IMG/VR virus record: IMGVR_UViG_3300048881_000780
Length of the DNA: 64,000 bases
Source: a virus
Taxonomy: Duplodnaviria; Caudoviricetes
Reading direction: 5' to 3' (one strand)
In this document: positions 19,911-52,037 of the stretch, in pieces
Layout of the letters: each line of letters begins with the position of its first letter
Position numbering within the stretch: the stretch's first letter is position 1
Made by a program: the position numbers and the translations under genes
The notes under the pieces: generated by a model
What the model was told of the DNA's origin: nothing
The model's input: the letters and a program-made list of their open reading frames with translations, nothing else
The model's database searches: none

Positions 19911-20482
19911 AATATAAAGTATCCGAAGTACCTCAGTATATTAGTGTTGAATATAATACCGAAATTGGTTTTGGTCACCTCAGAGAGTGGCTAGAAGCTC
20001 TAGATCAAGAAACTAAAGAAAACTTTGGCAGTAATTACTGTCTAGATCTTATCCCCGACTTCCAAAGAGGACATGTTTGGTCACTGGATCAAAAGGTGGC
20101 CTTTGTCGAGCACGTTTTAATGGGTGGTCGATCGGGACTGGAAATTCTATTTAATGCAACCTTTTACGCTAAATCTAGTGATGGAATCCCAATGGATTCA
20201 TACTGCGTAGATGGTCTACAGAGAATAAGTGCAGTTCTAGATTTTTTAGACGAGAAGTTTAAAGTATTTCCTCATTTAAACAATGGTGGATTGTTAGCAT
20301 CTGACTTTAGAGATCAAAGAAGACTTAAGCAATTTAGATTTAAAGTTCAAGTTGGATCATTTCAAACTAGAGCAGAAATTCTAGAGTGGTACCTCCAAGT
20401 TAATAGTGGTGGAACCCCACACACTAAAGAAGAGCTTGAAAGAGTTAGAAAGCTTCTTAAAAATGAATCCTCGAGAAAGTAG
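19907..20482 (+). CDS. DUF262 (ParB-fold) domain protein
   Basis: PDFQRGHVW, VDGLQR, NSGGTPH. Confidence 0.85.
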   Translation: MKYKVSEVPQYISVEYNTEIGFGHLREWLEALDQETKENFGSNYCLDLIPDFQRGHVWSLDQKVAFVEHVLMGGRSGLEILFNATFYAKSSDGIPMDSYCVDGLQRISAVLDFLDEKFKVFPHLNNGGLLASDFRDQRRLKQFRFKVQVGSFQTRAEILEWYLQVNSGGTPHTKEELERVRKLLKNESSRK

Positions 20483-21210
20483 TGATTCAGAAGAGGCCAT
20501 TAATTATTCACATTAACTTTAGAATGGATAGAGATTATGAACCTCTTATTTTACCAAATATAGAAAAAGGGTCGTGGATTCAATTTACAGACTTAGAAAA
20601 AGATAGAATTTATCTAAAGGAAAATAGCACAGAAGATCTCCCCTATACAACTGATGGCCTATATAAAATTAAGACCCATGGAAATATCCCAATTGCAAGA
20701 CTAATTAAAGACTGTAAACAACTTAGAAAATCGATTTTCAAGATAGAAAGTGGTGATCACCACTTCTATGGCAATTCAATCATTAAAGGGTGCTCTAATC
20801 TTAAAGAATTTATCTCCACTGGTTCTTGCCAAGTTTATAATGCTGGCAGTATGTTTGAAAATTGCACCTCCTTAGGTATTGTAGATATACAAACTATGTC
20901 ATTTTTTGAATGTCACTTTATGAGTTATATGTTTTACAATTGTAAAAAATTAAAAGAGATAAAGTTCCCCACTAACTTTGGTCGACAAATTGGAAATCTT
21001 CACTCTATGTTTTATGGGTGTAATTCTCTAAAAGATATTGATATGGAAGGCTTTAGACCAACTCTTTCAAATTGTAACATCGAAGATATCAGAAAGTACT
21101 GCCCTGCTAGAATAAGAATTAATAAAACCCTAAGAAAGTGGTCCCCTTTTAAAGATAACCTGGATTTCTACACTCAATCTGTAAATGATTGGATTCAATC
21201 GATATCGTAG
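20482..21210 (+). CDS. DUF285/BspA-like repeat protein with NxW tail
   Basis: SMFENCTSL, YMFYNCKKL, SMFYGCNSL repeats; ends NDWIQSIS. Confidence 0.75.
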   Translation: MIQKRPLIIHINFRMDRDYEPLILPNIEKGSWIQFTDLEKDRIYLKENSTEDLPYTTDGLYKIKTHGNIPIARLIKDCKQLRKSIFKIESGDHHFYGNSIIKGCSNLKEFISTGSCQVYNAGSMFENCTSLGIVDIQTMSFFECHFMSYMFYNCKKLKEIKFPTNFGRQIGNLHSMFYGCNSLKDIDMEGFRPTLSNCNIEDIRKYCPARIRINKTLRKWSPFKDNLDFYTQSVNDWIQSIS

Positions 21211-21237
21211 GATATTAAGCAAGAGTAAAAAAACATC

Positions 21238-21254
21238 TTAACACCTTACGTTAA
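21238..21254 (+). promoter_or_regulatory. palindrome/-35
   Basis: TTAACACCTTACGTTAA, 17 bp to TATAAT (21261). Confidence 0.75.
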
Positions 21255-21285
21255 AAAATGTATAATACTATACAAAGGGGAGCAC

Positions 21286-21678
21286 ATGAAAAAAATATAC
21301 ATAATTAAAGTCACAGATCCAGAAGAAGGCACTTTCTATGCTAGCTCATACGATGATAAAGAGAAAGCTGAACTTTATATGGTTAAAACTAATCTCGAGG
21401 TAAATTCTGACAATATCCAAAAAGCAGAATTAGCTTCCGTGCAGTTAGAATACTTTTATAAAAATATTTATTACAACCCAAAAACATTAGAGATATCGGC
21501 CCGCATGTCTGATGCGTTTAATACAAGAATCTTTTTTGACGAGGGGAAACTTAGAGCAGAAAGAAAGTCTGAATTACTTGATAACATTAAGACTCTCAAA
21601 GCGATACAAGATGCAAAACCTGTTATCCCAGTAAGCGAGGACGTTCCATCTTTTGATGATATCATAGGTAGGTTATAG
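21286..21678 (+). CDS. hypothetical protein
   Basis: GGGGAG RBS. Confidence 0.65.
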   Translation: MKKIYIIKVTDPEEGTFYASSYDDKEKAELYMVKTNLEVNSDNIQKAELASVQLEYFYKNIYYNPKTLEISARMSDAFNTRIFFDEGKLRAERKSELLDNIKTLKAIQDAKPVIPVSEDVPSFDDIIGRL

Positions 21679-22077
21679 TTTATCTTTACTTCTATTTAAT
21701 AAATCTTTATTCGTAGAAGATAAGAAGCTCTTACACCAAGAAATCAAATCTTTTCTGAAATCTGCAAAGAGATCGAACTTAAAGACTTTTGTCTCGGTCT
21801 CTTTTTGCCATGGGTATTTATAGTAGAAAACAATTAATTCAGAATCGGCTATCTCAAATTTGTAATTGGCAAAAGAAAAGGATTCTTTAGTACCTGTAAA
21901 AAGCTCTAAGAGTCCTCTTAATTCTCTTCTTGATAATTCTATTTCATCTATTCTGGTTATTCTGTTTTTTAAAAACAGAATAGGTCTAACTATATCACTT
22001 TCTACAATTTCAAAGTACATTACAACCCTTGATTTATCAGTGACTAGCTCTGTTATACCTCTTCTGTCTTCGAACAT
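21673..22077 (-). CDS. hypothetical protein
   Basis: 134-aa ORF. Confidence 0.55.
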   Translation of the reverse strand: MFEDRRGITELVTDKSRVVMYFEIVESDIVRPILFLKNRITRIDEIELSRRELRGLLELFTGTKESFSFANYKFEIADSELIVFYYKYPWQKETETKVFKFDLFADFRKDLISWCKSFLSSTNKDLLNRSKDKL

Positions 22078-22133
22078 AAATATTTCTCACTACTATTGTT
22101 ATATATCTGTAATTATACCATATTAGCAATTAG

Positions 22134-22150
22134 TTAACACAACTTGTTAA
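22134..22150. promoter_or_regulatory. palindrome just upstream of a TTGACC/TATACT promoter
   Basis: TTAACACAACTTGTTAA. Confidence 0.7.
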
Positions 22151-22193
22151 TAATTAATTGACCATTATCAGATTAATAAGTTATACTTAGATT

Positions 22194-22352
22194 GATCCAA
22201 TGTGAATCTCACCTCTTGGTTCAAACAGAGGAGACTCTGGCCCTAGGACTCATAAGCGAGATGGCGATATCTTTGATCATTTAATTGCTTAAAATCTTTA
22301 TAATTATGCAATTTTGATAATTCCTAGACTCAGATTTATACTTGCATTGGTG
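22194..22352 (+). ncRNA. candidate structured leader RNA, copy 2
   Basis: Closing stem CCAATGTGA/TTGCATTGG, hairpin CCTCT/AGAGG, stem CTAGGA/TCCTAG, hairpin AATTGC/GCAATT; motif shared with copy 1. Confidence 0.6.
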
Positions 22353-22362
22353 CGGAGATTTT

Positions 22363-23082
22363 ATGAAAAACCTAATTATTCAAACAAAAGAAGATCTACA
22401 AAAAGCGAAAGAGGATTTTAAAAACTCCTACTTTAATAACTTTAATCAAAAAATAAGAAACTCAAAAGTTGAAGCCTTTATGGCCGACTTCTATGGTTTC
22501 AAAGATTATAATTCGCTACTTGGTTCATTTAAGAATGAAGCTATGAAATTTAGCAGTTTTAATGAAATGCTCTCCTATTTTCAAGGTGAAAGTGCCACTT
22601 ATGAAGAAAAGGTTCATATTGCGTCAAAATACTTTCCATTAAATATGGGAATGGTTGAATCTTCGGGCAATAAAAACTTGGGGGTAATTGTAGCAGTTGA
22701 AGATGGACCTACTATGAGTTGTTATCGGGACGTAGAAGAGCTTTATGTGTGGTTTAACTTCTTTAATAGGTCTAAGCTCAATAAATCTATTGAGAAGGCC
22801 GTAGAGCGCTCTAGAGAGCCCGTATTATCTAAATCAAGGAAGAGATATGCTCTCGATGATATACTTCCTCATGAAAATATTAACGATGACTATTATGACA
22901 AAGAGGAATACACCAAGACGTTGTATCATTTGATCTATTTTTACCGAGAATTATTCAATGGTAGCTACCGTCAAGCAATGAAAGATGCGCTAGATTTTTT
23001 GTATTTCACTGCCCAAAAAGAAGAGGTTGAAATTGCTGTTTTTAGAGATAGAAAAGATGGCGTTATCTCACTCGCAAAATAA
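22363..23082 (+). CDS. protein with Glyoxalase_8-like N-terminal domain (paralog of 2914-3645)
   Basis: ATG after GGAG; shared N-terminus and shared FYRE(L/I)F.G...DFL.F C-terminal block. Confidence 0.7.
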   Translation: MKNLIIQTKEDLQKAKEDFKNSYFNNFNQKIRNSKVEAFMADFYGFKDYNSLLGSFKNEAMKFSSFNEMLSYFQGESATYEEKVHIASKYFPLNMGMVESSGNKNLGVIVAVEDGPTMSCYRDVEELYVWFNFFNRSKLNKSIEKAVERSREPVLSKSRKRYALDDILPHENINDDYYDKEEYTKTLYHLIYFYRELFNGSYRQAMKDALDFLYFTAQKEEVEIAVFRDRKDGVISLAK

Positions 23083-23096
23083 GTTAGGAGAAGTTA

Positions 23097-23369
23097 ATGA
23101 AAATTGTGAAAGTAATAGTTATGATCTTAATGTCAATTTCACTTAATGCAAAAACGGTTACCCTTAAAGATATTAAAGTTGGTGGCTGTTTTACAACTTC
23201 AGCTACTATTAATTTTTCTAGTAATCCATATATCTTGCATATAAAATTAAGCGCTAATACTTACGGGCATATCTATCGTGGTTCTCATCTAATAGTGGAA
23301 GAGGAGCGTTTTTCTCATCATATAGTTACACCTATCCCATGCTTTGGATATTACAAGATTCACAATTGA
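23097..23369 (+). CDS. small secreted protein
   Basis: Signal peptide ending SLNA. Confidence 0.6.
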   Translation: MKIVKVIVMILMSISLNAKTVTLKDIKVGGCFTTSATINFSSNPYILHIKLSANTYGHIYRGSHLIVEEERFSHHIVTPIPCFGYYKIHN

Positions 23370-23382
23370 CACATCATGTTAA
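23366..23382 (+). promoter_or_regulatory. palindrome/-35
   Basis: TTGACACATCATGTTAA, 17 bp to TATAAT. Confidence 0.8.
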
Positions 23383-23422
23383 ATAATATATAATAGAGAT
23401 AACCAACAAAGGACATTATCCA

Positions 23423-23614
23423 ATGAACCAAGCAAGTTACTCTTTTATTGAATTATCAAAGAAATCTCAAGAAAAGGCCATTTTAGACTATCAGAATGGT
23501 TGGAGAGAAACTCACCCAAATGACTCTCTTAGTGATGGAGACGTTGTTTCAATTTTAACGACTGATTTAAAGTGCGATAGATATAAATCAGACGGATCTC
23601 TAACAGTAGACTAA
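23423..23614 (+). CDS. hypothetical protein
   Basis: YSFIELSKKSQEKAI phage-like N-terminus. Confidence 0.55.
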   Translation: MNQASYSFIELSKKSQEKAILDYQNGWRETHPNDSLSDGDVVSILTTDLKCDRYKSDGSLTVD

Positions 23615-23625
23615 TCGGATATCCC

Positions 23626-24036
23626 ATGAATAGAGAAGAAATTGAAACTATAAATCTATTAATTTCTAAATTCATGGGTGTTGAATATTGTAAGTGTTGT
23701 GATGATGGATGGGATGGAGTTTCAAGATCCTTGCACGCTAATTGCAAAAAGTGCGCAAAACCTCATACGACCAATCTTGCCTGTCAAAATAAGTATACTA
23801 ATTCCATAGAGTCTTATTCGGAGGTCTGGAATAAACTTTTAAGGGACTATGGAATTAAAGTAGAAACTCATTTGATTTCAGAAGATATATATCAAATTTT
23901 CTTTGAAAGTAAGTGTAATGCCGTTCTCGTTGAATACAAGTCTAAAGATAAAGAATCAATGGTTCATGCTTACGCCAGGGCCACTAGTGAAATTGTTGAT
24001 ATCGTTCTTGAGTCTTACAATAATGATCGATTCTAA
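23626..24036 (+). CDS. phage ABA-sandwich-like hypothetical protein with Cys cluster
   Basis: INLLISKFMG...YTNSIES resembles 57611-57928. Confidence 0.5.
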   Translation: MNREEIETINLLISKFMGVEYCKCCDDGWDGVSRSLHANCKKCAKPHTTNLACQNKYTNSIESYSEVWNKLLRDYGIKVETHLISEDIYQIFFESKCNAVLVEYKSKDKESMVHAYARATSEIVDIVLESYNNDRF

Positions 24037-24039
24037 CCA

Positions 24040-24126
24040 ACTTCTTGGGATATTTTTACAAAACCCCTAACTTTTTGGGATATTTTCACGAACTCCACTA
24101 CTTGTTGGGTTATTTTCACTAAAACT
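24040..24126. repeat. imperfect 30-bp direct repeat x3
   Basis: ACTTnTTGGGwTATTTTyACnAA at 24040, 24070 and 24100. Confidence 0.8.
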
Positions 24127-24133
24127 AGAAATT

Positions 24134-24682: not shown

Positions 24683-24791
24683 ATGGTTATTCCTTATTTT
24701 AAGTTTCTTATTTCACTTATCGTAAATTGATTAGTGAAGGTTCTAATTTATGGGTAAATTTCTTATATAGGAGCTCTAAAATAGGAGTAAA

Positions 24792-25916: not shown

Positions 25917-25933
25917 TTAACACCACTTGTTAA
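25917..25933. promoter_or_regulatory. palindrome/-35
   Basis: TTAACACCACTTGTTAA. Confidence 0.7.
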
Positions 25934-25981
25934 AGTATGGATTATGATATAAACTACAGGAACACTACACCTAGAGGAATT

Positions 25982-26629
25982 ATGGAATTCATAAAGTTCA
26001 ACTTCAACTTCATCTGTTTTGCGATTGTGAGTCTACTTGCCGCAACTGGGATCATTCTATTGATTGAAACTATCATAACCAAAATATTAGCTTCATATAA
26101 TAAATGCAGATCTGTTTCTGTTCCTATCGGGAATGACGACTCATTTAGGTTTGAGTACAATGTTTTAAAATCAGAGAAACCTCTCTATCTAGATTCATAT
26201 TATGATAAAAGGATTATGGAACACATAACCGACATTTTAAAGCATAGTGAAGTAGATTTAGAAGATATCAATGTCTTTATGGGAAATCCTTTTCATAATT
26301 TTCAGTTGAATAAATTAAAAAATAAGTACGACATACGAGTAAAAAGTATCAATGGGCTTAACTTCTTTGCAGGCACTAATTATACTGGAAAGTCTAGGGT
26401 TACATTGGAACAAGATAGTTTAACTCTCCAAACTAGCCTTCATTATAAAGTAGAATTTCCTAGTAACTTAATTCTCAGAGAGTCATACAATGAACTAATG
26501 AAAAACCTTAGTTTCCCGCGACCTATAAAGTCTAGTGATGATGCTAAAGAATTTATCCTGAAGTATCTAAACTCTATTTATCCGGGCAAGAAGTTTGTCG
26601 TAATCATCGAAAGCATCGAAATTAACTAA
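25982..26629 (+). CDS. membrane-anchored NPxxNF-family protein (paralog 2)
   Basis: TM helix; FMGNPFHNFQL. Confidence 0.75.
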   Translation: MEFIKFNFNFICFAIVSLLAATGIILLIETIITKILASYNKCRSVSVPIGNDDSFRFEYNVLKSEKPLYLDSYYDKRIMEHITDILKHSEVDLEDINVFMGNPFHNFQLNKLKNKYDIRVKSINGLNFFAGTNYTGKSRVTLEQDSLTLQTSLHYKVEFPSNLILRESYNELMKNLSFPRPIKSSDDAKEFILKYLNSIYPGKKFVVIIESIEIN

Positions 26630-26668
26630 TGGTCAATATTTAAGTGAACAAATCACAAAAGAGGAGTT

Positions 26669-27346
26669 ATGGCATATTTATTAAAGAATTACTTATGGGT
26701 TATCGGACTTGCTTTAATTACTACCGTAACATATCGCCTTTATTATTGGTGGATAGAATCAACAAATCAAGAGCACTTAGAATTTTGTAAAAAGTGGAGA
26801 TCCACTGCAATTACTCTTTTTTGTGAAGATATTTCTAAAACTTTTAATTTTAACTATGAATTAATCCCAGGTCATAGGTCTCTCGATATGGGAGCATGTT
26901 TTGATGAAATCATCAAAGATCATATAATTAGAGTCTATAAGAGTAATGGAACAAACTTAAACACCCTCAACACCTTCATGAAGAATCCTTGTCAAAACTT
27001 TATGATCAGAGATCTATTAAATAATCACGGTATTCTCATTAGAAGAATTAACAAAGTTAAGCTAAACGTGCAGTCAGATTATTCAGGAGAATGTCCTGCT
27101 ATTATCAGAGAGCATGATACTAACTATAATGTCTTAGTAGATTATCGGGTAGATTTTCCAGAATATCTCCAAATGAAAGAAACTTACGATGAATTGATGA
27201 GTGGGATGAGTGGATTAAAACTTCCCTCACCAATAGAACTTCACGATGACGCCAGGGATGCTATCTATAAATATCTAAACACAGTATACCCAGGCTTTAA
27301 GTTTGGAGTAACTATTTTAAAGGTCGAATTACAGGAGGCCCTGTAA
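26669..27346 (+). CDS. membrane-anchored NPxxNF-family protein (paralog 3)
   Basis: TM helix; FMKNPCQNFMI. Confidence 0.75.
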   Translation: MAYLLKNYLWVIGLALITTVTYRLYYWWIESTNQEHLEFCKKWRSTAITLFCEDISKTFNFNYELIPGHRSLDMGACFDEIIKDHIIRVYKSNGTNLNTLNTFMKNPCQNFMIRDLLNNHGILIRRINKVKLNVQSDYSGECPAIIREHDTNYNVLVDYRVDFPEYLQMKETYDELMSGMSGLKLPSPIELHDDARDAIYKYLNTVYPGFKFGVTILKVELQEAL

Positions 27347-28071
27347 TGTACTTCCGATATATAATTGTTGTTTTAATAATATATTTGGCTTATGCGGCAT
27401 TTAAATTCTTTAAAAGATGTAAAGAAAGCAAAAGGATAGACTTTTTAAATAGATTTAAATCAGCTCAAATAGCGCTTCAAATGGGGCCATTTAAAAAGAG
27501 TATTTTTATTATGTATACGCTCTCTAAGAGCAATACTAATATATTGTCCTTACAAGAATACCAAAAGATTGTAAGATCTCACTTCTTGAAGATCCATAAA
27601 TTAAATATGAATAGCATTCAGGATTTAAAGGATCTCTATAAGAACCCCTTTTTTAATTTTAGAGTTAAAGAGCTCTATGATCGATATGGAATTGTTATTC
27701 AAACTATCGATGGATTTAATTTTGACAATGTAGTCAAGGCGCCATCGAAAGCGATTGCAAGTAAGCACGGAAAATATTCACTCTCTGAGTACAATTATAA
27801 AAAAGAATCCCAATTAGAAGGAGTCTTTAACTCTACTTACGTTAGCGAGAATGGTTCGACTGAAGTTAGGATAGCGTATTCTGTAAAGGTTCCAAGAGAT
27901 AAACTCCTTAAACATTCATTTTCTGAGCTATCTAATAAAGTTGTCGACACAATTGACACTAGAAGTAAGAAGGAAGCTAAGGTCTATGTGAAAAAGTGTT
28001 TAAATGAGTCCTTCGTAGATTATGCGGATTATAATTTTGAAGTAATAATTACTGACATGAGGATTTCCTAA
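27346..28071 (+). CDS. membrane-anchored NPxxNF-family protein (paralog 4)
   Basis: TM helix; LYKNPFFNFRV. Confidence 0.75.
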   Translation: MYFRYIIVVLIIYLAYAAFKFFKRCKESKRIDFLNRFKSAQIALQMGPFKKSIFIMYTLSKSNTNILSLQEYQKIVRSHFLKIHKLNMNSIQDLKDLYKNPFFNFRVKELYDRYGIVIQTIDGFNFDNVVKAPSKAIASKHGKYSLSEYNYKKESQLEGVFNSTYVSENGSTEVRIAYSVKVPRDKLLKHSFSELSNKVVDTIDTRSKKEAKVYVKKCLNESFVDYADYNFEVIITDMRIS

Positions 28072-31142: not shown

Positions 31143-31580
31143 TTAACCGAAGTCATTTAAGAATTCTTCAATTTCTGATACTTTGTTCCACTTAATATCA
31201 ATACCCAAAAGATCCGATGTTACAAAGAATCCTCCCATATCAACCACAAATGAGTATGCACTTTTTCTTTTGAAAATTGAATAATCGCTATCTAATTTAA
31301 TCAGATCTCTAGTTTGTCTACTCGTTTCAAGAACCCCATGTTTAATATCATTTAAGAATAATTCATTTTTCTGTAATACTTCTTTATTGATATTATCTAA
31401 TAACTCTTGAGATCCGATTATTTGAAAATTTATTTTCAATAACTTTTTCCCTATATGTGCACATAATCTGTAAACAGGTTTGTGGTGTCCTCCGTAACAA
31501 TAGGACATATAAGCAAAGTCACTATTGCTTCCCTTAATATAACCTGGATATAAATTGAACTCTTCTTTAGTTATTATCAA
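31143..31580 (-). CDS. LYPGYxKG-family protein (subtype b, copy 1)
   Basis: IITKEEFNLYPGYIKG...VSEIEEFL; probable TTG start at 31580. Confidence 0.7.
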   Translation of the reverse strand: MIITKEEFNLYPGYIKGSNSDFAYMSYCYGGHHKPVYRLCAHIGKKLLKINFQIIGSQELLDNINKEVLQKNELFLNDIKHGVLETSRQTRDLIKLDSDYSIFKRKSAYSFVVDMGGFFVTSDLLGIDIKWNKVSEIEEFLNDFG

Positions 31581-32085
31581 TAAAACCATCTTTCTTTAAC
31601 TCACTCTCTAGGTAATTAAAATACTTCTGAGCATTATCAGTATTTCTAAAGTAATTATCGACTTCCCCGACACTACTCCAAGTAGAAGATAGCGTAAAAT
31701 CTGATTGCCAGCCAACATTCTTTCCATTTACGATAATTTTACCTTGATACCAAGCTTCACAAATCAAGAAGTTATCCACGTCAGATAGCAAATCAGCAAA
31801 ATCGTATGCTTCTTGTCTAGCGGTACATTTACATTCTCTTATATTTGAGAGCGTGCGAGAGTAGTCATCTTCAACTTCCCTCGGCAGAGCATCTGAAACT
31901 ATTTGCTCTCCATGAGAGTAGAACTCAACTCTGTAAGATACCTTGCCCGCTTGGTAGTTAACAGCGTAAACATACTTTGAAGTGTTTTTTCCAATGCCAA
32001 AGGATCTTGCAATAGCAGGCCTATCTGTAGATGATCCTTTTTGGTAACCTGGATATAAATTAGGTATTTCTTCGTATATTATCAT
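31567..32085 (-). CDS. LYPGYxKG-family protein (subtype a, copy 1)
   Basis: PNLYPGYQKGSSTD...NIRECKC. Confidence 0.75.
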   Translation of the reverse strand: MIIYEEIPNLYPGYQKGSSTDRPAIARSFGIGKNTSKYVYAVNYQAGKVSYRVEFYSHGEQIVSDALPREVEDDYSRTLSNIRECKCTARQEAYDFADLLSDVDNFLICEAWYQGKIIVNGKNVGWQSDFTLSSTWSSVGEVDNYFRNTDNAQKYFNYLESELKKDGFIDNN

Positions 32086-32092
32086 TATTAAC

Positions 32093-32584
32093 CTATATAT
32101 CTAGGGCCTTAAGCCAGGAGTTAGTTATTTTATCCTTATTTAAACTTTCCAGAGCTTTTCTAACCATCATTTTTCTTTGAGAGAAAAACAGCTCCTTTTC
32201 TTGTTTAAGTGTTAGATTATTAGGAATTTTCCCTTCTATGAGTCCATGAACCATTTCATGACTTAAGGTTATGAGTTTAGTATCTTTAACTATTTCGCAA
32301 TTAAAATTAGTGAAACATAGTACTTCGTGACGAGTAGAAAGTGCCAATAACTCCTTTATGGGGAGAAACTTTGTAAACTTCTCTTTGTTTAAAGTTTTTA
32401 AATACTTTATAGACTCTAATAGTTTTTCAATATTTAGTGGGTGTCCCTCTATGAATCTTATCTCGATATCATTGTTAAAATGATCATTTATAATTTTAGA
32501 TGCTTCTAAGCGGGATTCCTCTGTATCAAAGTAGATATCACCAATAACATCTCTTTTTGATTTATGTTTTAATAATGAATCCAC
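32093..32584 (-). CDS. hypothetical protein with NxW tail (paralog of 33620-34066)
   Basis: ASKIINDH...LPIKELL; ends NSWLKALDI. Confidence 0.7.
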   Translation of the reverse strand: MDSLLKHKSKRDVIGDIYFDTEESRLEASKIINDHFNNDIEIRFIEGHPLNIEKLLESIKYLKTLNKEKFTKFLPIKELLALSTRHEVLCFTNFNCEIVKDTKLITLSHEMVHGLIEGKIPNNLTLKQEKELFFSQRKMMVRKALESLNKDKITNSWLKALDI

Positions 32585-32616
32585 CTTCTCTCCCGTATCT
32601 AAGAAGTTACTACTAA

Positions 32617-33123
32617 TTAAAAATCTTTTAGAAACCCAGATTGCCTCTCTTCAATCTCTTTAATAAATCTATGTGCTCTATCTTCTTGATTAAAGAAATC
32701 TTCTATTTCTTTAACACTAGAAAATCTATACCTTATATCATCCATTTGTAATTGTTTTGCCGTTAAGTAGAAACCTCGTAAAACAACGGCCTGAAGCATA
32801 TACTTTGAAGCTGTTTGAAAAATGCATTTACTACTATCAAGTTCTAATATTTTTAAAGTATCTTCTTTCGTGCTACAAGATTCATTCTTGATATTATTAA
32901 GCAACTTATGATGCTCGCTTTCAACTCTGTCGTATATAGTTTCTCTTAATCTTTGCTCTCTTTCTGCACTGAACTCAATGATAACTTCTTCATTGTTAAG
33001 ATTTGTTAAAACTGTAAAAACAGGTTTAGTCACTCCGTGGGCCTTTGCAAATATGGCATTATCTAACTTAGTCCCTTTTTCATAACCAGGGTATAAATCT
33101 GTGAATTCTTTTGTAATAATCAC
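32617..33123 (-). CDS. LYPGYxKG-family protein (subtype b, copy 2)
   Basis: IITKEFTDLYPGYEKG...VKEIEDFF. Confidence 0.75.
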   Translation of the reverse strand: MIITKEFTDLYPGYEKGTKLDNAIFAKAHGVTKPVFTVLTNLNNEEVIIEFSAEREQRLRETIYDRVESEHHKLLNNIKNESCSTKEDTLKILELDSSKCIFQTASKYMLQAVVLRGFYLTAKQLQMDDIRYRFSSVKEIEDFFNQEDRAHRFIKEIEERQSGFLKDF

Positions 33124-33611
33124 TCTAAATCCTCTAAGAATTGAAAGTATGAAAGGGCATTATCTTTATTTTGAAAATATTCTTCAATTTCTGCAATACT
33201 ACCCCAAACTCCCTCGAGCCCCAGATCACTTTCGTATCCATGATCTTCGTCATTTATAGTTACTTTTCCTTGAAACCATGAGTTCATAGAAAATAAATCA
33301 TCGCAATTATTAATTAATTCAACTAATTCACTAGTATCTTTAATGGAATTGCATTTTCACTTTCTAGCATTAGATAGAGTATTAGAGAATCTATCCTCTA
33401 CTTCTTCATCTAGATAATTACTTATTCTCTGCTCTCCAGAAGAAAAGAACTTAACTTCATAGGTATTTTCACCGAAGTTAGCACTTACTGAACAAACGTG
33501 GTTAACTCCGTCATCAAAGTATCCACAACATCTAGTTATGACATCGCTATCAGTGGGAGTCCCCTTTTTAAAACCTGGATATAGATCCTTCTTATATTTA
33601 AAAATAATCAT
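33120..33611 (-). pseudogene. LYPGYxKG-family gene (subtype a, copy 2) interrupted by one in-frame TGA
   Basis: TGA at 33357-33359; the frame continues for 78 codons, aligns with 31567-32085, and ends at a TGA overlapping the next GTG. Confidence 0.75.
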
Positions 33612-33619
33612 ATCTATTC

Positions 33620-34066
33620 CTATTTTAAAGACTCTAGCCAACTATTGTGAACCTGAATGATTTTAAACTTTCTTTTTAGATCTCTCTTATCGAAGTGGTG
33701 CCATAATTCGATGGCCTTATCCCCATGACGCTCCATCATTTTTAAAGTCCCATTAGCGAGGTATACCTTTTTATTGTAGATATAACCTAGTGGATCCGTT
33801 AATTTTATTGGAAACCAGGTCAATTCACTTTTTACTGAGAACTCCAATAATTTTCTTATTGGTAAAGTTAATAATTTCTCATCATTAGCGTCCATATGAG
33901 AAAGTAGTGATACTAATTTTGTAATATCTAGCGATTGATGCTCTAGAAAAGTTAATCCAATTTCTAGATGATCTCTAATTATCTCACTAGCTCTATCTAG
34001 ATCTTCAATATTGGAATATTGAATAATTCCACCCCAATGAGCTTTCTTTGGTATTTCTTTTTTCAT
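33620..34066 (-). CDS. hypothetical protein with NxW tail (paralog of 32093-32584)
   Basis: ASEIIRDH...LPIRKLL; ends NSWLESLK. Confidence 0.7.
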   Translation of the reverse strand: MKKEIPKKAHWGGIIQYSNIEDLDRASEIIRDHLEIGLTFLEHQSLDITKLVSLLSHMDANDEKLLTLPIRKLLEFSVKSELTWFPIKLTDPLGYIYNKKVYLANGTLKMMERHGDKAIELWHHFDKRDLKRKFKIIQVHNSWLESLK

Positions 34067-34073
34067 AATTATA

Positions 34074-34304
34074 TTAAGAAATTACTACCATCTTAGAGAT
34101 TTCGCGATCTTCATCTTCGCTCTCTTCAATGATCTTATTCACTTGTAGAGTAGACAATACTTTTAGTATCATACTTTTAGTATCAATTTCTTCAATCTCA
34201 GAAACTACTTCTGAGCGACCATAATCGCCATAATTGTAAGAAAATCCGATTTCCGCCTCTTGATCTTCTCTTAGAAGCATTTCTACTAATTCTTTAACTT
34301 TCAT
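34074..34304 (-). CDS. small phage-type hypothetical protein
   Basis: MKVKELVEML...YNYGDY. Confidence 0.65.
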   Translation of the reverse strand: MKVKELVEMLLREDQEAEIGFSYNYGDYGRSEVVSEIEEIDTKSMILKVLSTLQVNKIIEESEDEDREISKMVVIS

Positions 34305-34343: not shown

Positions 34344-34360
34344 ATAACACAATACGTTAA
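34344..34360. promoter_or_regulatory. palindrome between divergent genes
   Basis: ATAACACAATACGTTAA. Confidence 0.6.
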
Positions 34361-35394: not shown

Positions 35395-35395
35395 T

Positions 35396-41071: not shown

Positions 41072-41561
41072 ATGAGAAAAGATAGACCTTTCATATTTAA
41101 AATTGATACTCGCAATAATAAGACTCTCGAAATAGATCTCTATAGTCGTATTAAGTATAATTTTGTTATAGATTGGGGAGATGGCAGTTATGAAGAAGTT
41201 AAGTATTCACCCCTATCAGGGAATAAGGATTCAATTTGCCATAGTTATACTGGTGAAAATGTCTATACCGTAACGATATCAGGTAATGTTGAAGCAATGC
41301 TATTTAATAGTGAATCAAGGAAATGTCTTGTTGAAGTTATTGACCTTGGTGATTGCAACTGGAAGAGTTTATCTGAGATGTTTATTCGCTGTTCTAATCT
41401 TCAATCTTTCTCTGAAGGAATAACTCAATTTTTCAAAAAATGGATCTCAATCAATTTTAGTAAATAATTTTGCTAAGGATAGACTCTTTAAGAATGTTAC
41501 CAATATAAACGCCCTGGATGTTAATGCAATCTCTAATTCGTGATTGAGATCTATTGCTTAG
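41072..41561 (+). pseudogene. decayed PKD-like + DUF285 gene retaining a mutated NxW tail
   Basis: RPFIFKI..IDWGDG..DLGDCNW; repeats deleted with frameshift near 41430; second frame reads ...ILVNNFAKDRLFKN...SNS*LRSIA*. Confidence 0.75.
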
Positions 41562-41744: not shown

Positions 41745-42404
41745 CTATTTTACGAAAGAGTTTACTAGCTCGATATCTTCTTTTAAAGCGAAAAAAGATG
41801 ATCTACCTATGAATATTAATTCACAAACCTTCTTACAATTCCTCTCTTTATTAATTCTAAAAAAGGTTGCAAGATCTGCTCTAGGTGAAACACTCATTAG
41901 AAGTCTTCCTTTAATCCAAGGATTATTTTTAACAAGCCATTTTCGATCCATAAACTTTCTATCTTCTTGAAAAGGAATTTTTCTGTAGTTGACGCCAAAC
42001 TCATTTAAAAATGTATCTAAAGCTTCACGGGGGTATTTATTCGAAACGACATCAATCTCATTTTTTTGAAGCCTATTTTTAAGGTGAGATATGATTTTTA
42101 ACCATCTTCCTTTTGAATCTGAATCTCTAGCGATAGCACAAAGAGAGCCTAGTATTCTTAACTCTACATCATCTAGACCAATAGATAATTTTAAAAGAGC
42201 ATCTGTTCTTAAAAGATGTGAGTTTATATTAATCCACGTTCTTAAGAGTGAGTGGAATCTAGTTTCCTTTTTTATAAGAGATAATCCACATTCTTTAATC
42301 AACTCGACAATAAATACTTCAGGAGGAACAGTGTAGTTATTTATCCCTCCAGTAAAAGTAAAACCTAGCCCGTTTGCAATATTGTAAAGTCTATTCTTTA
42401 TCAA
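41745..42404 (-). CDS. NTase-associated protein with C-terminal HTH-like region (pair 3)
   Basis: NPWIKGRLLMSVSPRADL matches the pair 2 partner. Confidence 0.7.
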   Translation of the reverse strand: MIKNRLYNIANGLGFTFTGGINNYTVPPEVFIVELIKECGLSLIKKETRFHSLLRTWININSHLLRTDALLKLSIGLDDVELRILGSLCAIARDSDSKGRWLKIISHLKNRLQKNEIDVVSNKYPREALDTFLNEFGVNYRKIPFQEDRKFMDRKWLVKNNPWIKGRLLMSVSPRADLATFFRINKERNCKKVCELIFIGRSSFFALKEDIELVNSFVK

Positions 42405-42906
42405 AAATTGACTCCTCTGCTTGTTTTAAGTCAAAGATTTCGATAGTATTCAAATCGAAGCTTTCGACAAATGCTTTCGCTATTTTGTACTCATTTCTAC
42501 TTGGTTTTAAAGAAATAAGATCTTCAAGATCAAAATCTCTGTCTACAACTGCTTTTAATTTACTTGAAATTAGATCTTGCCGAGAAATCCCCTTGATTCG
42601 TAAGTGACTATAGCTCTTTATGTGTATCACTCTATCTATCCAGCCACTAGGTATTTGACTTTCAAATGCTTTAGCGTGATCATTGAGCCAGTTTTCTTCA
42701 TAACCTAATCTTTTGGCAACTGCATTACGGGCCTTATTTAGATTGTCGCTCATCTTAGGGGATAAAAAATCTATATCTCTTGTTGCACGATTAGAAATTT
42801 CACTAAGCACCAATAAAGCACCTCCGCAAATTACCAAGTTAATTCTTTCGTCAAATTTAGACAGCTCTTCATTTAGCAAAGTTAGGGACTTTTCTAAATC
42901 TATCAT
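42391..42906 (-). CDS. DUF6036-like nucleotidyltransferase (pair 3)
   Basis: ICGGALL...RATRDIDF...NWLND...PSGWIDR...DLEDL. Confidence 0.85.
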   Translation of the reverse strand: MIDLEKSLTLLNEELSKFDERINLVICGGALLVLSEISNRATRDIDFLSPKMSDNLNKARNAVAKRLGYEENWLNDHAKAFESQIPSGWIDRVIHIKSYSHLRIKGISRQDLISSKLKAVVDRDFDLEDLISLKPSRNEYKIAKAFVESFDLNTIEIFDLKQAEESIFDKE

Positions 42907-43862: not shown

Positions 43863-43879
43863 TTAACATAACGTGTTAA
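43863..43879. promoter_or_regulatory. 17-bp palindrome TTAAC-N7-GTTAA
   Basis: TTAACATAACGTGTTAA. Confidence 0.7.
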
Positions 43880-46557: not shown

Positions 46558-46586
46558 TATATATATAAACATTTTAAATATATAAT

Positions 46587-47327: not shown

Positions 47328-47609
47328 CTATAGATATCCCCACTTTCTATATAGTGGGTAATTTTCTTTCTTATCTTCAAATGCCTTATAGTATAAGTAC
47401 TCTGTGGCCACATCCTGACCAGATCTCCACATCAAGACTTTAGTTTTTTGATCAATGAAAAAATCTTTAAAGAGTTCGACCTCTCTTAATTCAGAAAAGA
47501 CACCCTCATTCAACAGATAGTGAAAATCTACTACTCCAGAACTACCATCGCTAAACTGTAGTTTTAGTTCATAGTTACTTATATATTCCGCTGAGATGAG
47601 ATTAATCAT
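47328..47609 (-). CDS. DUF2442 antitoxin-like protein
   Basis: YELKLQFSDGSSGVVDF...GVFSELR...LMWRSGQDVATEYLY. Confidence 0.8.
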   Translation of the reverse strand: MINLISAEYISNYELKLQFSDGSSGVVDFHYLLNEGVFSELREVELFKDFFIDQKTKVLMWRSGQDVATEYLYYKAFEDKKENYPLYRKWGYL

Positions 47610-48099
47610 CCTTAGAAACTCCAATAAATTTAACATCATGTAGAGACAATAGTTGTTGGCGCACTGTTGGATTTGGCATAAAACCATCTCTCTCTAGAAT
47701 ATCCCCATTGAAAAGAACTTTTAACTCGAAATAATTATCATGAGATCCATTGGGGTATTGCTCTTTTATAATCTTATTTATTTCTTTTGCATCTAGATTA
47801 ATGACTGGATAAGATCGACCATCAAATTTAATTTGATCAAATGAAGGAAAGCGAGGGTCATGACAATTAAGGTTAGTGATATATAGAGTGGCCTCTTTAT
47901 TCATTAATTCACTATTTTTAGCGGTTAGTAAACCTAGGGCCTCCTCTAGTTCAGTTCTATTGATATATAAATTACAATCGTCTCCGTGAATATGCACCAG
48001 GTTCGAGTACCCTTCTACTGGTTCAATAATCACTTCCCCATTTTTTAAAAACTCATCACCTAGTAAATCTCTCTCTGTTTGTATCTTTATTTTACTCAT
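47602..48099 (-). CDS. hypothetical protein upstream of DUF2442
   Basis: Overlaps the DUF2442 start. Confidence 0.6.
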   Translation of the reverse strand: MSKIKIQTERDLLGDEFLKNGEVIIEPVEGYSNLVHIHGDDCNLYINRTELEEALGLLTAKNSELMNKEATLYITNLNCHDPRFPSFDQIKFDGRSYPVINLDAKEINKIIKEQYPNGSHDNYFELKVLFNGDILERDGFMPNPTVRQQLLSLHDVKFIGVSKDD

Positions 48100-48123
48100 T
48101 AGCACTTTCCTTATTGTTAAGTA

Positions 48124-48720
48124 TCACTTTAATGATTCTAGCCATAAGTTCGTTTTCTTTGTAGGAATCAATGGATTAAACTTTTTCACCCCAAAGAGGC
48201 CAGTAAGGTAATCTTCAGAACAATCCTCAAATGCCTCTCCAATTTCTTTATCAGTAGACTCAAGGTCTCTACCAAATTCATTATTGGCCCATTTATCAAA
48301 ATTCATCTTGTTAAGATTTCCATTATATATAAAGTAACAATCCCTGCTGGTAGTAAAACAACTCCATCCCTTTAGTACCGATCTACAGTCATACATCATG
48401 GAGGCGTTTCTAAGAAGCTTCAAAATTTCACTAGAGTTATGAAGATCTCTAGGTAACTTGTGTAAATGCAACTTTAAATCCCTAGGAATTGAGCGATCCC
48501 ATTTTTTCGGATCTAAACCAATATTTGAAATTAGATAATCTCGACAATCTACAAAATCCGATTTGTTACTAAATTGAAAGAATCCAGAAAATGAATACTT
48601 AGGCATAAACCATCCCTTGATGTTTTCGTTTCTTTTGGGAGTTTGGATCAACTGGACACTATTAGAAAAGTCATATTCAATCCATTTTTTATACTCAATT
48701 TTGGCTCCATTTTTCATCAA
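48124..48720 (-). CDS. hypothetical protein with NxW tail
   Basis: Ends TNLWLESLK; start may be 48717 or 48606. Confidence 0.65.
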   Translation of the reverse strand: MMKNGAKIEYKKWIEYDFSNSVQLIQTPKRNENIKGWFMPKYSFSGFFQFSNKSDFVDCRDYLISNIGLDPKKWDRSIPRDLKLHLHKLPRDLHNSSEILKLLRNASMMYDCRSVLKGWSCFTTSRDCYFIYNGNLNKMNFDKWANNEFGRDLESTDKEIGEAFEDCSEDYLTGLFGVKKFNPLIPTKKTNLWLESLK

Positions 48721-48725
48721 GTGTC

Positions 48726-48935
48726 CTACTTTTTTGTCGAATTGGGATACGAATAATCATTATCCAGATGATCACGGCTTACTAGATCATCACTGTCACA
48801 ATGACTACTTAATATACTCATATCCATTTTTGATCCATAGTGACTTACTAAAGGCATTAAAGTAGTTTCTATATCTACAGAGGGTGCACAGTGTAGATCA
48901 CCAATTAGAATAAGGTCTGATTTTTTCTTTTTCAT
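48726..48935 (-). CDS. hypothetical protein ending in A_AAA_AAG_TAG
   Basis: GGAG RBS; LIGDLH motif. Confidence 0.5.
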   Translation of the reverse strand: MKKKKSDLILIGDLHCAPSVDIETTLMPLVSHYGSKMDMSILSSHCDSDDLVSRDHLDNDYSYPNSTKK

Positions 48936-48959
48936 TATTTTCTCCAGTTGAAATTTAAT

Positions 48960-49268
48960 CTATATGCTGTACTCACCCAAGCATTCCCACTCACCCAGAT
49001 CTCTCTTATCTTCTGCTTGTTTTCTCTTTAGTACTCTCTGGGCCTCTTCGAGAGTATCCCACTCGCGTATAATCCACTCCATATCACAATCATATGCCTC
49101 TTCACAAAGGGATGTCCAAATAAATTCTTCTTTAAGTACCTCACCAAAGAAGCTCTTAGTTATCTCTTTACACAGGTGTTTAATGCGAAATTTTACACCA
49201 TCAGTTTCAATTTTATATTTACGCTCTCTTGGATCAGTTAGATATACTTGATAAGTTCTAGTAAACAT
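48960..49268 (-). CDS. hypothetical protein
   Basis: GGGGAG RBS. Confidence 0.65.
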   Translation of the reverse strand: MFTRTYQVYLTDPRERKYKIETDGVKFRIKHLCKEITKSFFGEVLKEEFIWTSLCEEAYDCDMEWIIREWDTLEEAQRVLKRKQAEDKRDLGEWECLGEYSI

Positions 49269-49330
49269 ATTACTCCCCTATAGATATGTGTGTACTAATT
49301 TGTATTCCTCATATTAACATGATTCTCAAC

Positions 49331-49347
49331 TTAACGCAAGCCGTTAA
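49331..49347. promoter_or_regulatory. 17-bp palindrome
   Basis: TTAACGCAAGCCGTTAA upstream of the minus-strand gene starting at 49268. Confidence 0.65.
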
Positions 49348-49351
49348 ACAA

Positions 49352-50155
49352 TCAAGATAGAGATTTTAACCAGGTATTAGAGTTAGATATTGATCTCTCT
49401 TTAACAGTCACCCCATCCATGCTCTTAAAGTGCTTTTTCTTTGTTTCACTATTAGCGATAATTTTATTAAAGATACTTCCTGCAAATATACTCTTAGTAT
49501 CTACGTCATCGTTTAATCTAAAACTTGAAATATCTAGGGTTTTTATATTCCTAAACCCTGAAAACATTTTTTTTACAAACTTAACTTCTGGTGTTCTAAA
49601 ACTCGACAAATTGACTTCTTCAAGAGAGACCATATTAAAAAACATATATGACATGGCCGTAATCTTAGAAGTATCAAAGCTTCTTAAATCTAGGGAGGTA
49701 CATTTTCGTACATCCGAGAACATTCGATACATTGATTTTACATTGCTAGTATTAAAACTAGATAAATCAATATATTCTAGACTAGTGGCCCCCTTAAACA
49801 TTTTTGACATAGTGTTAACATTGGTAGTAACTCCACCACTAAAAGACCTTAAGTTTACGCAGTTGCAAAACATGTGACTAAGATCGAACCAATCACAATC
49901 CCCTAAATCAACTACCTCAGTTAGTAAAGGAAGCGATTCGTAAGAAAAACGCATAGTTCCCACTGTTCCGGATATAGTTACCGTGTACTCTCCTATTTTT
50001 TCATAAGTAGATGAAATACAGCTATATTCCCCCTCGTATCTTTCGACTTTTCCATTTCCCCAATCGATAACAAAGTCGTGCTCTGTATCACAATCTAATT
50101 CAAGAGCAAGTTCCTTAGTATTATCCATCATTATTTTAAATATAAATGGTTTCAT
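49352..50155 (-). CDS. PKD-like + DUF285/BspA-like repeat protein with NxW tail
   Basis: IDWGNG; LSSFNTSNVKSMYRMF repeats; ends NTWLKSLS. Confidence 0.85.
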   Translation of the reverse strand: MKPFIFKIMMDNTKELALELDCDTEHDFVIDWGNGKVERYEGEYSCISSTYEKIGEYTVTISGTVGTMRFSYESLPLLTEVVDLGDCDWFDLSHMFCNCVNLRSFSGGVTTNVNTMSKMFKGATSLEYIDLSSFNTSNVKSMYRMFSDVRKCTSLDLRSFDTSKITAMSYMFFNMVSLEEVNLSSFRTPEVKFVKKMFSGFRNIKTLDISSFRLNDDVDTKSIFAGSIFNKIIANSETKKKHFKSMDGVTVKERSISNSNTWLKSLS

Positions 50156-50964
50156 GATATTGCCTTTAACCAGTTATTTCTTTGGTTATTAATGGGTTTA
50201 GTAATAACTTTTTCATTATCTTTAAAGTACTTTAACTTCGCTGACCCAGATACCATTACTTGAAGTGGCCCTTCATTGAAAATATTATCTATATCGCAGT
50301 TATCAAAGTTAAATCCACTAAGATCTAGAAACTTTAGGGATTTGCATTTTTCAAATAGAAAGCTCATATCCTTTATGTTTTTAGTATCTATAGAACTTAA
50401 ATTAATAGATTCAAGTGCTCTCATTTCACTAAATATACAACTGGCCTCAATTAATTTTGAAGTATCGAAACTAGACAGATCTAAATGCTTCAGGGAACAA
50501 GTATTATGAAACATAAAACTCATATCTAAAACATTTCTTGTATCAAATGAGGATAAATCCACACTCTCTAGGGAAGTAGCATTACAGAACATCCCCTTCA
50601 TATTTGTAACATGAGAAGTCTCTCCCCCTTTAAATTTTATTAAGTTAGAGCAAGCGTAGAATATATCATTAAGTGATTCCCAATTACAATTACCTAGATC
50701 AATGACTTCAGTGATCATTGTTGCTGTATCAAAATTAAATCCTAGCTTTTTAATATCTCCGCTTATTCGAATAATATAATCCTTACTATCTTTATACTCA
50801 TGATAGATTGATCTACTTCTTAAGTCAGGATCATTGCGCTCCACTATATTTCCATCACCCCAGTCTATAGAAAACTCATATCCTGAGTGTTTAGTGAAAT
50901 TAATCGTAACTCTCTTATTCTCCCCTCCAAAAACAAGAATATCATAAAACAGAACTTGACACAA
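50152..50964 (-). CDS. PKD-like + DUF285/BspA-like repeat protein with NxW tail
   Basis: IDWGDG; LSSFDTRNVLDMSFMF repeats; ends NNWLKAIS; start uncertain. Confidence 0.8.
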   Translation of the reverse strand: MCQVLFYDILVFGGENKRVTINFTKHSGYEFSIDWGDGNIVERNDPDLRSRSIYHEYKDSKDYIIRISGDIKKLGFNFDTATMITEVIDLGNCNWESLNDIFYACSNLIKFKGGETSHVTNMKGMFCNATSLESVDLSSFDTRNVLDMSFMFHNTCSLKHLDLSSFDTSKLIEASCIFSEMRALESINLSSIDTKNIKDMSFLFEKCKSLKFLDLSGFNFDNCDIDNIFNEGPLQVMVSGSAKLKYFKDNEKVITKPINNQRNNWLKAIS

Positions 50965-50972
50965 GTCGTTAA
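50956..50972 (+). promoter_or_regulatory. palindrome/-35
   Basis: TTGACACAAGTCGTTAA, 17 bp to TATACT. Confidence 0.8.
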
Positions 50973-51018
50973 CAAATATATACTATACAAAACTAATCGG
51001 TTTTACTTAGGGGGAGAG

Positions 51019-51267
51019 ATGAGATCATTTAATTTTAAAGCTAAAAAAGTTGAAACTGCTGGCTCTAAAGTAGAACTCATAAGAGTTACATCAGAAGAAG
51101 AATTAGAAAAAGTAGTTCATTTCTTAAAGGGATTATGTGTACAAACTTACGCATATTATACAAAACACAATCCTAACTCCAATTCATTTGCTAGTGAGGA
51201 GGAATTTGAGAGGTATGTGGTAGATGAAGCATCTAGAGATAGTGCTCAAGTAGTTGTTTTACTTTAA
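51019..51267 (+). CDS. hypothetical protein
   Basis: ATG after GGGGGAG. Confidence 0.6.
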   Translation: MRSFNFKAKKVETAGSKVELIRVTSEEELEKVVHFLKGLCVQTYAYYTKHNPNSNSFASEEEFERYVVDEASRDSAQVVVLL

Positions 51268-51287
51268 TTTAACCAAGAGATTAGCAT

Positions 51288-52037
51288 ATGAAACATACTC
51301 CAAAGAAACCATTAGTACTCTACTTTCAGACAAAAATTGGTGAAAAGATTGAAATTGATATCACAAAAAAAGACGCAAAACCTCTACAAATCACCTGTGG
51401 AGATGAATCGTATATCTCAAATGAAGAAATTGAATATGAATGCTTCACTCCTAAGTTAAGTAGTGATGGTTCGTACGTCGTAAAGGTTTGGGGAGATCTA
51501 GATTTAAGATTTGCCTTTCAAAACATCTCTTTATTGAATAATCTGATCAAAGTTGAAACTGGAGACTTTATATTCACTCATCCAGACTCTTTTAATGGTT
51601 GCATTAATTTAAGAGAGTTTCATGTAACTGGCATGGCCATTATGACAAATATTAAAGGAATGTTCTGCGGGTGTGCTTCTCTAGATTATATAGATTTAAG
51701 AGGTGTCTTTTTTACAGATGACGTTAACTCTACTGAATTCATGTTCTCGTACTGTGAAAATTTAAGAAAAGTAGAATTTCCTAGATCCTCTTTTGGTGAA
51801 AATATCCACAATATGAATAGAATGTTTCTCGATTGCCCTAAACTAGAACATGTAAATATGAGAAGATTTAGACCTAGTGAAGAGGTATTAATGGAGTCTC
51901 TACTTGATACAAAAGCCATGTGTGGACAAATTACAGTATCTCATAGTGTGAAAGAGAGATATTTCCAAGATAGTGATATTTTCTGTACGTCGGATACTAC
52001 AAATATCTGGTTAGAGTCTCTTTCGGATGTTGCCTAA
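51288..52037 (+). CDS. DUF285/BspA-like repeat protein with NxW tail (closest to 20482-21210)
   Basis: GMFCGCASL, FMFSYCENL, RMFLDCPKL; ends NIWLESLSDVA. Confidence 0.75.
   Translation: MKHTPKKPLVLYFQTKIGEKIEIDITKKDAKPLQITCGDESYISNEEIEYECFTPKLSSDGSYVVKVWGDLDLRFAFQNISLLNNLIKVETGDFIFTHPDSFNGCINLREFHVTGMAIMTNIKGMFCGCASLDYIDLRGVFFTDDVNSTEFMFSYCENLRKVEFPRSSFGENIHNMNRMFLDCPKLEHVNMRRFRPSEEVLMESLLDTKAMCGQITVSHSVKERYFQDSDIFCTSDTTNIWLESLSDVA

Follow-up and report, generated by a model that had tools for sequence, protein, structure and literature searches.

A strict C-terminal heptad on three unrelated protein groups in a 64-kb viral DNA window, a candidate docking or export tag

Several described systems read a short peptide or module at or near the end of a protein. 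Among type VII substrates, the tail of EsxB is bound by the FtsK/SpoIIIE-type ATPase EccC, and the cargo-loading peptides of encapsulins and the capsid-targeting sequence of phage T4 are short terminal peptides read by a shell or scaffold protein. For type IV secretion systems (T4SSs), the LvgA subunit of the coupling complex in Legionella recognises an FxxxLxxxK helix close to the C-terminus of effectors (PMC7251119), the all-alpha domain of VirD4 binds the XVIPCD of Xanthomonas antibacterial T4SS effectors (PMC8740702), and conjugative T4SSs carry plasmid proteins into recipient cells via C-terminal or internal signals (PMC11288057). In Escherichia coli FtsA, the protein end is a membrane-targeting helix, GSWIKRLNSWLRKEF (PMC9098913). 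Here we describe a terminal heptad, N-x-W-[LI]-x-[SA]-[LI] (the tag), in a 64,000-nucleotide stretch of a viral element (IMG/VR record IMGVR_UViG_3300048881_000780; Duplodnaviria, Caudoviricetes). The whole stretch is referred to as the window, and the proteins that end in the tag, called carriers, are named by their lowest coordinate (Table 1).

The tag is real and strongly non-random. All eight intact open reading frames (ORFs) on which a first-pass annotation of the window, made by a model from the letters and their ORFs, had placed the heptad do end in it, with 1, 2, 2, 1, 1, 1, 1 and 4 residues between motif and stop in order of coordinates. Across 20,000 within-protein residue shuffles of a 117-gene set, the C-terminal motif occurred 0.0015 times on average (maximum 1), compared with the 8 copies observed, while the motif anywhere in a protein had a shuffle mean of 0.039; none of the 117 genes holds an internal copy. 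At the DNA level, the pattern formed by the tag, one codon and a stop was found 5 times in the window against 0.06 expected. The comparison with shuffled and host-like proteomes, which the first-pass annotation had proposed as a check on itself, thus came out in favour of the motif, with Bdellovibrionota genomes at background. A six-frame scan revealed no further strict copy in a real frame beyond these eight and the ninth, decayed copy that had also been reported. The latter lies in a pseudogene of the leucine-rich repeat (LRR) carriers and reads NS*LRSI at 41535-41555, where TGG has become TGA, and the 41072-41467 portion of this pseudogene corresponds to the 5′ half of an LRR paralog, with 50% identity to 49352. 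TGA is a true stop in the element, since it also terminates three of the carriers. One other orphan protein, which ends in LDWMRALS, may by its sequence be a degenerate variant of the tag; by estimate, chance alone would produce about 0.08 matches of this looseness per window.

The tag is also portable. The first-pass annotation had spoken of unrelated families on nine genes; unrelated groups do exist, but they number three rather than nine, namely the five LRR carriers with their one pseudogene, a pair of orphans designated family B (32093 and 33620), and the single orphan 48124. Its division of the intact carriers into five DUF285/BspA-like proteins and three without such repeats holds, as the five match DUF285 or LRR_5 or are paralogs of proteins that do. 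All five are mutual paralogs at 21-37% identity: three pass the PF03382 cut-off of 25 bits (38.8-89.6 bits), 20482 passes that of LRR_5 (PF13306; 28.4 versus a cut-off of 27.7), and 51288 scores below the PF03382 and LRR_5 cut-offs yet is a paralog of 20482 (E 1.9e-22). The two family B members match each other at E 6e-8, and a family B profile recovered no other member among 1.84 billion representative proteins; no relatives of the family were found outside the element. For 48124, no relative was present in a 5.8-billion-protein collection and no relationship to the LRR carriers was detectable, and a search of a protein atlas yielded no usable match for family B or for 48124 (labelled family C). 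We considered 48124 as a distant member of family B on the by-eye likeness of GFFQFSN and GIIQYSN, and rejected this since neither BLASTP nor a profile search supported it. The tail is accordingly not simply family homology, as the first-pass annotation had argued, being shared by three sequence-unrelated groups and absent from the ends of external DUF285 homologs (0 of 119).

A separate observation concerns the surroundings of the family B genes. Over the interval listed in Table 1, they alternate with an orphan paralog family, designated X, of approximately 150-170 residues with the N-terminus MIIxKE..LYPGYxKG and no Pfam match. The gene order is B, X (split into 33357-33641 and 33120-33287), X, B, X, X, a layout that, on gene arrangement, looks like effector/immunity or effector/chaperone arrays.

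Comparison of the carrier genes at the nucleotide level indicated that the peptide is the selected unit. Identity between carriers is 63% in the 21-nt core, whereas it is 29% in the 45 nt upstream, which is background for the composition. Within the core, four codons are used for Ser (TCG, TCT, TCA and AGT), two for Ala (GCC and GCA) and five for Leu/Ile (for Leu, CTN or TTA). Because the core is this much more conserved and its synonymous codons are mixed, the peptide has been kept by selection and not by recent DNA copying; by these sequence comparisons, the tag is a sharp seven-codon island under purifying selection. Across the carriers, the Asn, the Trp and the small residue (Ser or Ala) are invariant, whereas the first x varies freely and the second is Gln, Lys or Glu in every case, as would suit a helix with one face buried in the groove of a protein. 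The decayed copy (41535-41561) has lost its Trp.

Structural modelling indicated that the tag is appended to the fold of its carrier. The AlphaFold2 model of 49352, built on the five-paralog alignment, was confident overall (predicted local distance difference test score, pLDDT, 87.7; predicted template modelling score 0.83), and matches solved LRR proteins such as 4u06 and 4fs7. It shows an N-terminal beta domain followed by an LRR solenoid with its own C-terminal cap, the fold ending at about residue 252. Beyond it comes a linker (residues 256-264; pLDDT below 50), and the stretch after the motif Asn (residues 261-266) is modelled as a short helix of low confidence that does not pack against the fold. 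The variable linker described in the first-pass annotation is therefore seen as a disordered segment with a short helix beyond it, and the possibility it had raised against itself, that the tail is an integral capping helix of one shared fold, is not borne out. Because the modelled fold closes near residue 252 and is followed by the disordered linker and the unpacked helix, the tag appears to be an addition and not a cap. The corresponding family B model (pLDDT 42.7) was not interpretable. All tails are amphipathic, with hydrophobic moments of 0.37-0.70. In helical geometry, the S/A, W, L and L positions fall on one face spanning approximately 160 degrees, with the polar x opposite and the Asn at the N-cap place.

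The tag is specific to the element throughout the collections searched. No ORF ended in the strict tag either among unrelated metagenome loci (4,357 ORFs in 1.2 Mb) or in the regions surrounding the LRR carriers' nearest genomic relatives (4,093 ORFs in 1.17 Mb). In the three closest Bdellovibrionota metagenome-assembled genomes (MAGs), totalling 11.8 Mb, the DNA tag pattern had 4 matches and a reversed-pattern control had 5; across 401 Bdellovibrionota genomes, there were approximately 493 matches with at most 5 per genome. This corresponds to a density of roughly 0.4 per Mb compared with 78 per Mb in the window, or approximately 200-fold lower, and none of the ORFs of at least 50 residues at the 10 loci around the most tag-like of these matches ended in the tag. 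A 406-residue protein of the window likewise had no match in the 401 genomes. A scan of metagenomes for relatives of the window's CCA-adding enzyme returned 80 loci at no more than 40% identity, none of them tagged, in a collection that does not include the window's own contig. Two IMG/VR scans found no sister elements, a phage DNA search for relatives gave no match, and plasmid protein searches yielded only generic DUF2779, helicase, ligase and BspA matches, none tagged. Searching the Protein Data Bank with a tail profile returned nothing meaningful, with one chance internal match (CdiI, E 0.84).

The origin of the LRR modules offers the most direct comparison between tagged and untagged proteins. 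A locus scan with a four-row alignment of LRR carriers placed the best genomic relatives of the combined N-domain and LRR module in Bacteriovoracaceae, Halobacteriovoraceae and Bdellovibrionales MAGs, at 32-35% identity. Three Bdellovibrionota MAGs show massive expansion of the module made up of the N-domain (F-x-IDWGDG) and DUF285, with 46, 39 and 137 matches per genome, and from the affinity of this one module family only, the host of the element may belong to the Bdellovibrionota. All eight of the closest genomic relatives that we inspected start with a signal peptide, which in the Bdellovibrionota relatives is of the lipoprotein type with a Cys after the hydrophobic core. The relatives are 460-2,500 residues long, versus approximately 250 for the copies in the element, and they finish either in a 26-residue-repeat-type end or, in Bacteroidota relatives, in ...KIVKQ/KIIKQ, which we take to be a putative sorting domain of the type IX secretion system kind. 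The usual DUF285/BspA architecture, an N-terminal signal peptide and often a C-terminal surface-sorting module, is absent from the carriers. A Kyte-Doolittle scan found no hydrophobic N-terminus on any of them, in keeping with the missing signal peptides of the first-pass annotation, and no transmembrane stretch either. In the LRR copies of the element, the heptad stands in the place of the C-terminal end-modules seen in the relatives. No stronger hint emerged that the tag may be an alternative address replacing the signal peptide, although it is positional evidence and not proof. As a side observation, many of the expanded module copies in Bdellovibrionota are arranged in tandem, and open frames of 1,800-2,500 residues contain some of them.

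Our preferred interpretation, which we hold tentatively and at somewhat less than even confidence, is that the heptad is a portable docking tag for one element-encoded reader, most likely serving as a ticket for export or translocation. The heptad would act as a short linear motif transferable between proteins, forming an N-capped amphipathic helix of two turns behind a flexible linker, and a single reader encoded by the element would bind it in a groove, by which unlike proteins would be handled as one class. Binding modules whose relatives are exported by Sec would have lost the N-terminal signal and gained the tag, which would then hand its carriers to the element's own secretion machinery, putatively of type IV, for delivery out of the cell or into another cell. 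All eight carriers agree with known T4SS substrates in location, since these are soluble proteins with the signal in the last ~20-50 residues. The interpretation accommodates all of the observations above and has precedents in the Legionella, Xanthomonas and conjugative systems.

Several observations count against export through a type IV machine. No T4SS, ATPase or other hub gene occurs among the 105 predicted window proteins. Known T4SS signals are loose, charge-biased, or domains of ~120 residues, whereas the tag is a strict heptad. The tails do not show the charge signature of either the Arg-rich VirB/D4 type or the EExxE Dot/Icm type: they have no Arg-rich or Glu-block character, and the last 12 residues carry a net charge of -3 to +1 with no RxR and no EExxE. 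The carrier genes lie behind operator-like palindromes as most genes of the window do, with no tie in expression to a secretion operon. Furthermore, LRR modules can also act inside the cell.

Among described signals, the Legionella FxxxLxxxK motif is similar in being a short helical motif on unrelated substrates that enters the hydrophobic pocket of one adaptor for type IV sorting, but it is loose, occurs in 8% of non-effectors, is used by few effectors, and has no fixed distance from the protein end (PMC7251119). The tag, by comparison, is a strict heptad that always lies 1-4 residues from the stop, and an LvgA-like reader is not known for it. The XVIPCD is likewise a shared C-terminal module that brings otherwise unrelated effectors to one coupling protein, with effector genes paired with immunity genes; it differs as a folded domain of ~120 residues with a Gln-rich tail (PMC8740702), in contrast to the seven residues of the tag on a disordered linker. 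The C-terminal signal of type VII substrates shares with the tag a short C-terminal helix with few fixed hydrophobic residues that docks on a motor ATPase, but its motif is another one, it is confined to WXG100 helical hairpins, and its systems are Gram-positive and mycobacterial.

A bolder form of the export interpretation is considerably more doubtful. The heptad would constitute a protein-sorting code of the element, a universal ticket for the coupling or unfoldase ATPase of an atypical type IV machine, which would re-address surface modules taken from a host resembling Bdellovibrionota, as well as orphan effector-like proteins, for injection into recipient or prey cells; some of these orphans alternate with candidate immunity genes, as family B does with family X. 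If this were true, no consensus signal for a conjugation-type secretion system would have been defined so sharply before.

The alternative that survives best, possible although rather unlikely in our estimate, is that the tag plugs interchangeable binding modules into one cytoplasmic machine, such as an AAA+ remodeller, an unfoldase or a protease. The modules would then be exchangeable specificity subunits directed, for example, against defence proteins of the recipient or host, close to the ankyrin/F-box analogy of the first-pass annotation. Portability, the linker and the invariant residues fit such an arrangement as well as they fit export; most carriers are diversified binding folds, as the 21-37% identity among the five LRR paralogs illustrates, and defence-type genes are neighbours, with a GmrSD_N gene apparently coupled to carrier 20482 and three DUF6036/AbiEii pairs in the window. 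However, no machine of this sort occurs among the window proteins, and the exported nature of all the relatives of the LRR module would be left unexplained.

Direct membrane targeting is improbable. It would make the tail a short amphipathic helix that dips into the inner membrane in the manner of FtsA or MinD, with no protein reader. The tails are indeed amphipathic C-terminal helices by their hydrophobic moments, and they resemble each half of the E. coli FtsA helix (GSWIKRL and NSWLRKEF), with which they share the near-identical pattern [GN]-S-W-[IL]-[KR]-x-L at the extreme C-terminus (PMC9098913); NSWIKSL and GSWIKRL have five of seven residues in common. At 7-8 residues, however, a tail is only half as long as the FtsA helix and falls short of the at least ~10 residues with net positive charge expected of such a helix. 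FtsA has a net charge of +3, whereas the tags are neutral to acidic (-3 to +1, several of the tails being acidic at the end) with invariant polar and small residues. Amphipathicity would suffice for lipid binding; nevertheless, N, W and S/A do not vary between the groups, even though the DNA of these groups is saturated with changes.

Even less probable is a degron, a tail read by a protease or unfoldase of host or element that would make the carriers short-lived. The C-terminal tail, predicted to be exposed on a flexible linker, would suit this function. Classical C-terminal degrons of the ssrA/ClpX type are recognised through two or three non-polar residues at the very end together with the free carboxylate, but here the motif is followed by 1-4 residues of differing types (S, K, DD, DI and SDVA), shifting the register by three, which makes a degron unlikely. 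It would also be hard to explain why ~7% of the genes, including diversified binding modules, should encode unstable products.

We give very little credence to a replisome tether, in which a clamp-binding, PIP-like motif (N-x-x-L-x-x-L compared with Q-x-x-L-x-x-F-F) would tie proteins to a sliding clamp that the element possesses. In the spacing of its N, L/I and L/I the tag resembles a PIP box, a type of motif found at extreme C-termini; it has, however, Asn instead of Gln and no aromatic pair, its carriers are LRR proteins and orphans, and it is missing from the DEAD helicase, the DUF2779 protein, the CCA-adding enzyme and the NT5C nucleotidase (the ligase gene extends beyond the start of the window, which leaves its C-terminus outside). 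Clamp binding is unlikely because the consensus differs and these window DNA enzymes are without the tail. Loading into virions, suggested in the first-pass annotation, is unlikely as well, because neither Pfam nor PHROG families identified virion genes among the 105 window proteins, and no shell, capsid or prohead-protease gene was found there. Encapsulin and T4 signals resemble the tag as one short terminal peptide on unrelated cargo with one shell or scaffold reader, but they require a capsid or shell gene, of which none was found among the 105 window proteins, and the T4 signal is N-terminal and cleaved off. That the tail has no function of its own, as an inherited capping end-piece of one family or a product of chance, is hardly credible: five of the eight carriers are paralogs, but chance is excluded by the shuffles, the three groups share the tail only, external family members have no tail, and the tail is unpacked in the 49352 model.

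The window has a G+C content of 32% and small genes densely packed on both strands, with no tRNA genes in its 64 kb. Protein matches connect the window proteins to a single 361,129-bp contig, and the same DNA is present in hydrothermal-vent metagenomes of two studies; contigs from the second vent sample were identical fragments only and are thus uninformative about variation. Pfam and PHROG scans of the 105 predicted proteins identified an NAD-ligase fragment, two PAPS-reductase-like proteins, a DUF2779 protein, the CCA-adding enzyme, a DEAD helicase, an NT5C nucleotidase, a GmrSD_N protein, three DUF6036/AbiEii nucleotidyltransferases and the DUF285/LRR proteins, and no secretion genes. Genes neighbouring the carriers had no Pfam match.

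Other features of the window are listed with the carriers in Table 1. The CCA-adding enzyme has its best relatives at 35-40% identity on contigs of 100-800 kb, mostly from marine metagenomes, with no tag within 10 kb of them; these contigs may be other giant elements or phages. The stop of the GmrSD_N gene overlaps the start of the tagged LRR gene 20482, and the two appear to be translationally coupled. Three paralogous two-gene units each consist of a DUF6036/AbiEii-type nucleotidyltransferase (171-180 residues) followed by a partner of 219-232 residues without a Pfam match, and by this composition look like AbiE-like toxin-antitoxin or defence pairs. Operator-like palindromes of the form TTRACAC-N3-nnGTTAA were found 28 times at no more than 3 mismatches across the window, compared with 4.9 expected, many of them intergenic and some in front of carrier operons; CCACT-box promoters were found at 3 sites, none upstream of a carrier. 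There are also three tandem orphan paralogs, related to one another at E values down to 3e-33 with no family match, and one pair of distant paralogs with 33% identity over 229 residues (E 2.5e-23).

Table 1. Carriers of the C-terminal heptad and other features of the 64-kb window
Feature	Coordinates	Strand	Description
LRR carrier, 242 aa	20482..21210	+	ends NDWIQSI-S
DUF285/LRR carrier, 222 aa	24792..25460	-	ends NSWIKSL-DD
Family B orphan, 163 aa	32093..32584	-	ends NSWLKAL-DI
Family B orphan, 148 aa	33620..34066	-	ends NSWLESL-K
Family C orphan, 198 aa	48124..48720	-	ends NLWLESL-K
DUF285/LRR carrier, 267 aa	49352..50155	-	ends NTWLKSL-S
DUF285/LRR carrier, 270 aa	50152..50964	-	ends NNWLKAI-S; tandem with 49352
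LRR carrier, 249 aa	51288..52037	+	ends NIWLESL-SDVA
Decayed LRR carrier	41072..41561	+	N-terminal half intact, repeats deleted, frame lost, remnant tail NS*LRSIA
Possible degenerate tag variant	58532..58945	-	137-aa orphan ending LDWMRALS
Family B/X array	31143..34304	-	
GmrSD_N (DUF262) protein, 191 aa	19907..20482	+	Pfam E 9.4e-11
Two-gene unit	12552..13767	+	
Two-gene unit	17973..19198	+	
Two-gene unit	41745..42906	-	
Tandem orphan paralogs	25937..28071	+	230, 225 and 241 aa
Distant paralog	2902..3645	+	
Distant paralog	22342..23082	+	
CCA-adding enzyme	58961..60235	+	PolyA_pol + HD
Operator-like palindrome	21238..21254		
Operator-like palindrome	25917..25933		
Operator-like palindrome	34344..34360		
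Operator-like palindrome	43863..43879		
Operator-like palindrome	50956..50972		
Operator-like palindrome	60524..60540		

Terminal peptides shared as addresses or docking sites are a known kind of feature, and the heptad is a new, exceptionally strict member of this class. Type IV and related secretion and docking signals are fuzzy, which makes their substrates hard to predict; a strict and easily searched heptad on approximately 7% of the window genes would define the whole substrate set and provide a handle for the reader. A mobile element that takes a host family of exported adhesin-like modules, removes the Sec signal and relabels them would represent a natural case of address swapping, and if the reader is a secretion ATPase, the tag could be used as a compact, transferable targeting peptide.

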